Shown in pieces: positions 49,971 to 50,038 of a DNA stretch of 64,000 nt. Source of the stretch: a virus (lineage: Duplodnaviria; Caudoviricetes). Below the pieces are notes generated by a model that was given only the letters and a program-made list of their open reading frames with translations, searched no databases and was not told the DNA's origin. The stretch is from the IMG/VR virus record IMGVR_UViG_2602041781_000001, positions 1,767 through 65,766 of that record. One strand, 5' to 3'. The position numbers and the translations under genes were made by a program. The stretch's first letter is position 1. Each line of letters starts with the position of its first letter.

Positions 49971-50038
49971 TCGAACCTGTGTGCGATCGAATGTCTGTTC
50001 GATGCCTCGAATGTCTGTTCGATCGAACCTGTGTTCGA
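49971..50038. promoter_or_regulatory. tandem array of four LexA (SOS) boxes
   Basis: TCGAACCTGTGTGCGA, TCGAATGTCTGTTCGA twice, TCGAACCTGTGTTCGA; actinobacterial consensus TCGAAC-N4-GTTCGA. Confidence 0.8.

Follow-up and report, generated by a model that had tools for sequence, protein, structure and literature searches.

An array of four LexA-type boxes in the replication-arm leader of a Gordonia phage without lysogeny genes: a candidate SOS-sensitive brake

The stretch of viral DNA analysed here, referred to below as the window (64,000 nucleotides of IMG/VR record IMGVR_UViG_2602041781_000001, that is 64 kb), contains two divergent genome arms separated by a 556-bp region, and this region houses an array of four 16-bp boxes (49971-50038) of the type read by LexA, the regulator of the SOS response to DNA damage. 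A rightward block of small genes begins at 50396, and structural and lysis genes are also transcribed in that direction. The leftward arm is a replication/recombination operon. Its first gene (48844-49839, minus strand) encodes a protein of 331 amino acids belonging to phrog_12059, a family with no assigned function, and is followed by genes for a WhiB-like protein, a helicase, a Cas4-family exonuclease, a P-loop ATPase, a DnaE-like polymerase, a RuvC-like resolvase and a primase/polymerase. The 331-amino-acid protein had no match in Pfam, matched only function-unknown families in PHROGs and gave no usable match in the Atlas; its best match among PDB sequences was at the level of noise (E = 0.49), and an AlphaFold2 model built from an 11-row alignment had a mean predicted local distance difference test score (pLDDT) of 41.9. 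Upstream of this gene lies an untranslated leader of about 324 nt (49840-50163, minus strand), preceded by a predicted leftward SigA-type promoter (50170-50199, minus strand; TTGACA-18-TACATT) that carries the palindrome TTGACGTCAA inside its spacer. The array is situated within the leader, which confirms the non-coding position between leftward promoter and first replication-arm gene assigned to it by the initial annotation of this DNA.

Box 1 of the array (49971-49986; TCGAACCTGTGTGCGA) has one mismatch to TCGAAC-N4-GTTCGA and is abutted by box 2 (49987-50002; TCGAATGTCTGTTCGA), whose single mismatch is at position 6. After a gap of 4 bp (TGCC) follows a second abutting pair, made up of box 3 (50007-50022), which again reads TCGAATGTCTGTTCGA with its mismatch at position 6, and box 4 (50023-50038; TCGAACCTGTGTTCGA), a perfect match. 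Box 3 is the left half of the abutting pair that was found in every related phage, and box 1 is the weakest and least conserved of the four, with two mismatches in phages Turuncu, Flapper, GTE5 and RedRaider. Coordinates and mismatches were re-read and agreed exactly with the four near-abutting 16-mers, one perfect and three with one mismatch, that had been described earlier.

The whole window was scanned for TCGAAC-N4-GTTCGA with at most one mismatch, and 11 sites were found against 0.37 expected (standard deviation 0.63). None of 100 dinucleotide-preserving shuffles of the window reached 11 sites, and a chance origin of the sites is thereby ruled out. Five relatives carry 12, 8, 10, 11 and 8 sites, and the reversed (uncomplemented) control pattern gave zero in each of them. 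Site density in the phage is about 30-fold above that of the Mycobacterium tuberculosis genome (11 per 64 kb against 24 per genome), and the perfect box was absent from 963 kb of Tsukamurella and Rhodococcus DNA.

A promoter scan of the region 49500-50700 returned the leftward element (50199 to 50170) as the sole promoter-like site, and no terminator was predicted. An alignment of six diverse subfamily members, from which the conservation of the promoter in distant relatives was read, shows a TTGNNN-18-TACA(T/G)T equivalent at the same position; a rightward TTGAC(G/A)...TACTGT element, read by eye in this alignment, is likewise conserved. With the transcription start placed about 7 nt past the -10 hexamer, the array would span approximately +125 to +192 of the leader and end about 130 nt upstream of the first gene. 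A promoter within the array itself was considered and rejected, as no TANNNT hexamer is present on either strand. On this predicted map the array is not a promoter-overlapping operator, which is its chief departure from a classical SOS box. The stretch from the array to the start codon of the first gene contains conserved blocks and, at 49911-49942, four GGGG runs within about 30 nt on the plus strand; the position of this G-rich tract is conserved in the relatives, and it might form a G-quadruplex on the strand that templates the leftward transcript.

The array motif is the LexA consensus of M. tuberculosis, TCGAAC(N4)GTTCGA, as defined by mutagenesis (PMC3381160, partial text), which bears out the mycobacterial assignment made at first from the letters. 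Further agreement was found at positions lying outside the search pattern. Five M. tuberculosis LexA sites given in PMC2724278, those of recA (TCGAACAGGTGTTCGG), lexA (TCGAACACATGTTTGA), dnaE2 (TCGAACAATTGTTCGA), ruvC (TCGAACGATTGTTCGG) and Rv3395c (TCGAACATATTTTCGA), have T at position 10 in 5/5 cases and A at position 7 in 4/5. Positions 7 and 10 took no part in the scan, so this A7/T10 rule is an independent feature; it is followed by 13 of the 22 half-site flanks of all 11 window sites, compared with a background of 17% (P = 1.2e-5), and by 9/14 flanks when the seven sites dispersed outside the array are taken alone (P = 1.2e-4). The commonest deviation within the array, A or T for C at position 6 (TCGAAA/T...GTTCGA), is also the deviation of the Rv3395c site, and Rv3395c is the top-ranked LexA peak in chromatin immunoprecipitation (ChIP) (PMC3381160, partial text). 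In Streptomyces venezuelae the LexA consensus is asymmetric, tCGAAC-N4-GNNCGa, and was confirmed by surface plasmon resonance (PMC9380542). The putative identity of the boxes as LexA operators is thus well supported by the sequence evidence.

Several searches were directed at the host side. The lexA gene was not found in three Tsukamurella/Rhodococcus records (0/3) or in a 5.7-Mb Embleya record; a genome-contig search with the DnaE-like protein matched only an alphaproteobacterial metagenome-assembled genome; a tblastn search of one phage open reading frame against plasmids gave no match; and a search with the GH19 lysin named Gordonia chromosomal homologues.

Conservation in related phages had been named at the outset as a check on the array, and the array was present in all five phage-collection relatives, with 13 distinct array versions recorded. 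In one alignment of six phages the spacers vary, but both pentamers, TCGAA and TTCGA, are unchanged throughout boxes 2-4. In the alignment of six diverse subfamily members, which reaches down to about 60% identity in the neighbouring gene, no invariant block of the whole intergenic region is longer than the abutting pair. Among 12 loci (the window and 11 related ones) the abutting pair always stands at the right, and its rightmost box is perfect in 11; to the left of the pair lies either one box, at a gap of 4, 9, 10 or 13 bp, or a second abutting pair at a gap of 4-5 bp. The window was also compared with RedRaider, which belongs to another genus, over seven orthologous boxes (the four array boxes and the left-end, RuvC-internal and WhiB/helicase boxes), and 80/84 core positions were identical as against 14/28 spacer positions (Fisher p = 2.9e-7). 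By these alignments the half-sites are under selection, and retention of the core while the spacer drifts points to a protein that reads half-sites rather than to a hairpin, which would show compensatory changes. Across 44 array boxes from the 13 versions, T occupies position 10 in 38 and G occupies position 11 in 43, and every box has the same polarity, with a strong right half (TGTTCGA) and a weak left half.

Arrays of this kind are not limited to the relatives of the phage. A search of IMG/VR for pairs of TCGAA-N6-TTCGA boxes that abut yielded 16 contigs, comprising 11 relatives and five unrelated contigs of differing G+C content: L014 and L016 (49%), which have four boxes in the same 2+2 layout, L018 and L019 (36%), and L025 (53%). 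At E<=1e-3 these five loci had no protein in common with the window, and the 331-amino-acid protein was absent from all five records (0/5). The sole database similarities of L016 and L025 were in actinobacteriophages, and those of L018 were not informative. The 90.9-kb, 36% G+C contig G002, from which L018 is taken, has two LexA-type arrays about 4 kb apart (191-249 and 4186-4233). A further IMG/VR scan, for the core CGAAC-N4-GTTCG occurring twice at 16-bp phase, returned 41 contigs against one for the reversed control. Of the 33 new loci obtained in this way (L035-L067), a single one could be aligned to the window, and 22 sequence clusters account for the remaining 32; many of the new contigs hold 3-7 boxes within 300 bp, often exactly 16-bp phased (for example L035 13087-13250, L055 1304-1450 and L053 10120-10300). 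In several unrelated contigs the boxes, read by eye, adjoin TTGACA-like hexamers. A helicase homologue is found in the array locus of two clusters, and ten proteins neighbouring arrays in unrelated contigs comprised three assigned to endonuclease families, one to a function-unknown family and six without a match. The recurrence of abutting arrays in unrelated contigs favours a host factor over a phage-private protein, and a motif common to unrelated phages of differing G+C content appears best explained by a conserved host protein.

No lysogeny gene was found in the phage, in keeping with the earlier remark that neither an integrase nor a CI-like repressor was visible; this, together with the lack of overlap between array and promoter, sets it apart from temperate elements with a LexA-controlled lysis-lysogeny switch, which carry lysogeny or maintenance functions. 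A tyrosine integrase was present in 2/36 array-bearing records and in one of the six records that are at least 90% complete. Five complete genomes unrelated to the phage had no serine recombinase (0/5), and four of them had neither type of integrase.

The explanation we favour, with moderate confidence, is that the array consists of host LexA operators which act as an SOS-sensitive brake on the replication arm, titration of LexA being a likely side effect. LexA binding, a roadblock and SOS release are the three steps that we infer from the sequence. As long as the cell is undamaged, the array would be occupied by LexA dimers, beginning at the perfect box 4 and spreading to its three weaker neighbours, the stronger half-site TGTTCGA lying on the same side of every box, with boxes spaced at 16 and 20 bp. 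The bound array would form a multi-dimer roadblock to RNA polymerase arriving from the leftward promoter, and four adjacent dimers would suit such a roadblock where a single site would be leaky. Judged by geometry alone, neighbouring dimers whose centres are 16 bp apart (about 1.5 turns) would lie on alternating faces of the helix, and those whose centres are 20 bp apart (about 1.9 turns) on the same face. The brake would be released by RecA-stimulated self-cleavage of LexA, resulting from prior DNA damage or from infection itself, and the cell's SOS state would then set the timing or the scale of replication-gene expression. Release triggered by infection is plausible by analogy with Rhodococcus infected by phage WC1, in which recA and recX were raised by 5 min (PMC10986025, partial text). 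The array would then serve as an early-to-middle timer or gain control and not as an absolute gate, which is unlikely because lytic growth on unstressed cells is hard to reconcile with it. Amplification of the genome would also soak up LexA, as a consequence rather than as the primary function; with 8-12 sites per genome, titration by replicating genomes would follow arithmetically. The sequence evidence computed here does not discriminate between an SOS-gated replication arm and a LexA decoy.

A number of observations weigh against a LexA brake. Classical LexA repression acts at promoters, and this array is off the predicted promoter; an SOS box lies on or beside the promoter of the gene it regulates, and the array is some 125-190 nt downstream of the inferred start. 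We know of no documented LexA roadblock. A strict promoter scan of four more distant relatives found a leftward consensus promoter in none of them (0/4). Position 6 is C in just 19/44 array boxes, and three of the four boxes may therefore be weak. Five of the 11 window sites fall inside coding sequence, and in M. tuberculosis 13 intragenic copies of the motif were unbound in vivo (PMC3381160, partial text). The consensus was defined in M. tuberculosis, and Gordonia LexA would probably read the same box in so far as it is bracketed by Mycobacterium, by matrices derived from Corynebacterium and by Streptomyces. Finally, a lytic phage able to form plaques on unstressed lawns cannot have a strict need for SOS induction, and any block has to be leaky or lifted by infection. 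The initial annotation had proposed, as one of its two interpretations, that host LexA blocks transcription of the replication/recombination arm until DNA damage. The LexA-box identity on which this rested stood up to the sequence tests, as did the leader placement and the lack of lysogeny genes; with the array about 125-190 nt downstream of the predicted promoter, such a block would need a roadblock, which is not the customary mode of action of LexA.

The array might alternatively be bound by a phage-encoded protein that shares or mimics LexA specificity, such as a double helix-turn-helix (HTH) protein of 160 amino acids, a WhiB-like factor or the autoregulated 331-amino-acid product. The last of these has the array directly upstream of its function-unknown gene, a typical autoregulatory spot, and the phage encodes two WhiB-like proteins. 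The 160-amino-acid protein (34638-35117, minus strand) has two stretches matching the excisionase/MerR-type HTH (TIGR01764) and weaker matches to BldC and HspR; in a phage without an integrase, its probable role is to regulate transcription and not excision. The single polarity of the boxes (G at position 11 in 43/44, C at position 6 in 19/44) could also result from a non-symmetric protein, although actinobacterial LexA operators are themselves asymmetric (PMC9380542). On the other side, the abutting architecture occurs in 22 unrelated contig clusters, the five unrelated loci that were tested have no protein in common with the window and lack the 331-amino-acid protein, and the motif fits LexA operators even at the positions that were not searched. 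The boxes are also unlike a stoperator, a motif confined to one phage lineage with its cognate protein. No phage-encoded LexA, S24 peptidase, integrase or resolvase was found, TIGR00498 and PF00717 gave no match, and no LexA-type winged helix scored above threshold in any of the phage proteins; PF01726 (LexA_DNA_bind) gave only a sub-threshold match of 13 bits, antisense to the structural genes located there. The phage promoters are already marked by another palindrome, TTGACGTCAA. It occurs at eight sites against 0.05 expected (20330, 39726, 42234, 50180, 50318, 52922, 54717 and 55370), two of which sit at the two divergent early promoters, and it is a better candidate than the LexA-type box for a phage-private operator; it may serve a phage-encoded regulator as its operator or act as a bidirectional -35 element. 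A phage-encoded binder of the array is thus unlikely.

The second interpretation offered at first was a LexA decoy, in which the amplifying genome titrates LexA to switch on host SOS functions. In such a sponge, the 8-12 sites carried by each genome copy would exceed the host regulon in number and draw LexA away from host promoters, turning on RecA, RuvABC, DnaE2 and division arrest to the advantage of the phage without DNA damage. The numbers suit it, with 11 sites per phage genome against 24 sites with at most one mismatch and 25 LexA ChIP peaks in the M. tuberculosis genome (PMC3381160, partial text), so that tens of phage copies would outnumber the host sites many-fold. Some of the dispersed sites are intragenic and without an evident regulatory role, and other viral contigs hold up to seven boxes within 300 bp. 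Against this, the array occupies one fixed place across the subfamily, the replication-arm leader, and boxes lie beside TTGACA-like hexamers in several unrelated contigs, both of which are predicted by regulation in cis; a pure sink needs no fixed place. The lexA gene is moreover autoregulated (a lexA box is listed in PMC3381160, partial text), which would buffer titration, and no paper on a phage or plasmid soaking up LexA was found under the terms titration, decoy or sponge, as judged on titles and abstract openings. As the primary function of the array, titration is distinctly unlikely.

A purely structural role, in which the 68-nt array forms a DNA cruciform or a leader-RNA hairpin for attenuation, stabilisation or the marking of an origin without any sequence-specific protein, is very improbable: the 324-nt leader does fold better than 100/100 shuffles (-121.1 kcal/mol, z = -3.5) with the array self-pairing in the prediction, but the A-B-gap-B-A symmetry behind the fold is not conserved (the relatives have one box, a gap of 4-13 bp and an abutting pair), the half-site letters are fixed and show no compensatory changes, those from C to T or A at position 6 being uncompensated, the 16-mer recurs singly in other contexts and in other phages, and direct iteron-like repeats lie elsewhere (49319-49457).

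The use of LexA by mobile elements is textbook knowledge for temperate phages, in which it sets the switch between lysis and lysogeny. Coliphage 186 (tum) and elements with LexA-repressed antirepressors employ host LexA as the damage sensor of a mobile element, and the rstA promoter of CTXphi is reportedly under host LexA in the same capacity. These are lysogeny-lysis switches with one or two promoter boxes of the proteobacterial type CTGT-N8-ACAG, and none of them is known to be an array in a virulent phage. The position of the array well downstream of the start is shared with the roadblock systems of LacI, CodY and CcpA, in which several sites in a row block more strongly than one; such a roadblock is not known for LexA, and we purely infer it here.

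The Bacillus tectiviruses GIL01 and Bam35 likewise have no CI-type repressor, and in them host LexA, on adjacent SOS boxes, restrains phage transcription; in GIL01 the switch involves dinBox1 and dinBox1b at promoter P1 and the phage protein gp7 (PMC4551915 and PMC6950372, partial texts). GIL01 is temperate, being maintained as a linear plasmid prophage, and its boxes are in the promoter, whereas the Gordonia phage is without lysogeny genes and its boxes are in the leader. Two actinobacterial tectiviruses scanned for LexA sites had none (PMC6950372, partial text). Within bacterial genomes, the divergent lexA/Rv2719c region of M. tuberculosis resembles the phage locus in having a four-box cluster of the same 16-bp motif in a divergent intergenic region; one good box regulates lexA, and three boxes with 2, 2 and 3 mismatches are bound in vivo and regulate Rv2719c (PMC3381160, partial text). 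Those boxes belong to two SOS-gene promoters, and the phage boxes are viral, abut at 16 bp and lie in a transcribed leader. No published description of LexA-box arrays in virulent actinobacteriophages was found, as judged mostly on titles and abstracts, with the original description of GTE5 and GRU1 falling outside the search.

In the phage described here, a LexA-type operator has been multiplied into an array that is fixed across a whole phage subfamily without lysogeny genes. We put forward tentatively, as a possibility short of an even chance, that 16-bp-phased rows of LexA boxes are a general device of virulent phages in actinobacteria and in other hosts reading GAAC-N4-GTTC, present in more than 20 unrelated lineages and serving as an infection-triggered timer or a LexA sponge. 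Such a device would add to the known forms of phage-host regulatory coupling a new class that stands outside lysogeny. If LexA does bind the array, virulent phages would read or manipulate the DNA-damage state of the host, with consequences for phage timing, for the synergy of phages with antibiotics that damage DNA and for the control of sludge foaming by these Gordonia phages. Gordonia terrae 3612 and the phage-engineering tools already available offer a direct way to test the system.

Outside the array, seven sites are dispersed over the window. The perfect box TCGAACAGGTGTTCGA (47123-47138) falls in the 3'-terminal part of the WhiB-like gene and precedes the helicase start codon (47098) by 25 nt, and the perfect box TCGAACAGACGTTCGA (35646-35661) lies within the RuvC-like gene; both are present in 5/5 relatives, with altered spacers in RedRaider. 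Three one-mismatch boxes are each shared with 4/5 relatives: TCGAACAGGTGTTCGG (40353-40368), within the thioredoxin-like gene and letter for letter the M. tuberculosis recA site of PMC2724278; TCGCACATCTGTTCGA (36550-36565), near the 3' end of the DnaE-like gene; and TCGAATATGCGTTCGA (56629-56644), which is intergenic and abuts the left edge of a 300-bp AT-rich island. A site at 28222 does not show A7/T10 and was found in only 3/5 relatives; it is probably a chance occurrence and was rejected as functional.

The box TCGAAAACCCGTTCGA (57331-57346) is intergenic, about 80 nt upstream of gene 1, and in the records of 4/5 relatives its counterpart is found at nt 29-44, counted from the left physical end; RedRaider has the same half-sites with another spacer. 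The first 56 bp or so of virion DNA in the relatives (window 57303-57360; loci L030 and L033, 1-60 in each) form a cluster of box-like elements, with a degenerate box at nt 6-21 and the conserved box at nt 29-44, to which Gruunavirus adds an overlapping box with two mismatches at nt 41-56. In these relatives, then, a LexA-type site stands only 29 bp in from an end of the genome.

Inside the gene for the 331-amino-acid protein, at 49319-49457, eight exact copies of the 9-mer TGGGCGGCA occur in the same orientation (0.79 expected). The protein segment that they encode is acidic and disordered, has AAH and VPP repeats and is conserved in the relatives; the copies could be iterons of an intragenic origin or simply a peptide repeat. 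An iteron-type origin built of the array boxes themselves was rejected, as the boxes are palindromic, the direct repeats are separate from them and the large AT-rich island is 6.6 kb away. As a matter of speculation, if the TGGGCGGCA repeats were an origin, transcription through them would also come under the proposed brake.

The AT-rich island (56645-56955) is an extremely A+T-rich segment of about 300 bp in a genome of 65% G+C. Its role may be that of an origin, of a packaging region or of a target for nucleoid-associated proteins. Two TTGAAACGTTTCAA palindromes flank it, a CATT run is found near 56934-56949, and the island belongs to a 1.2-kb gene-free stretch that holds the physical genome end.

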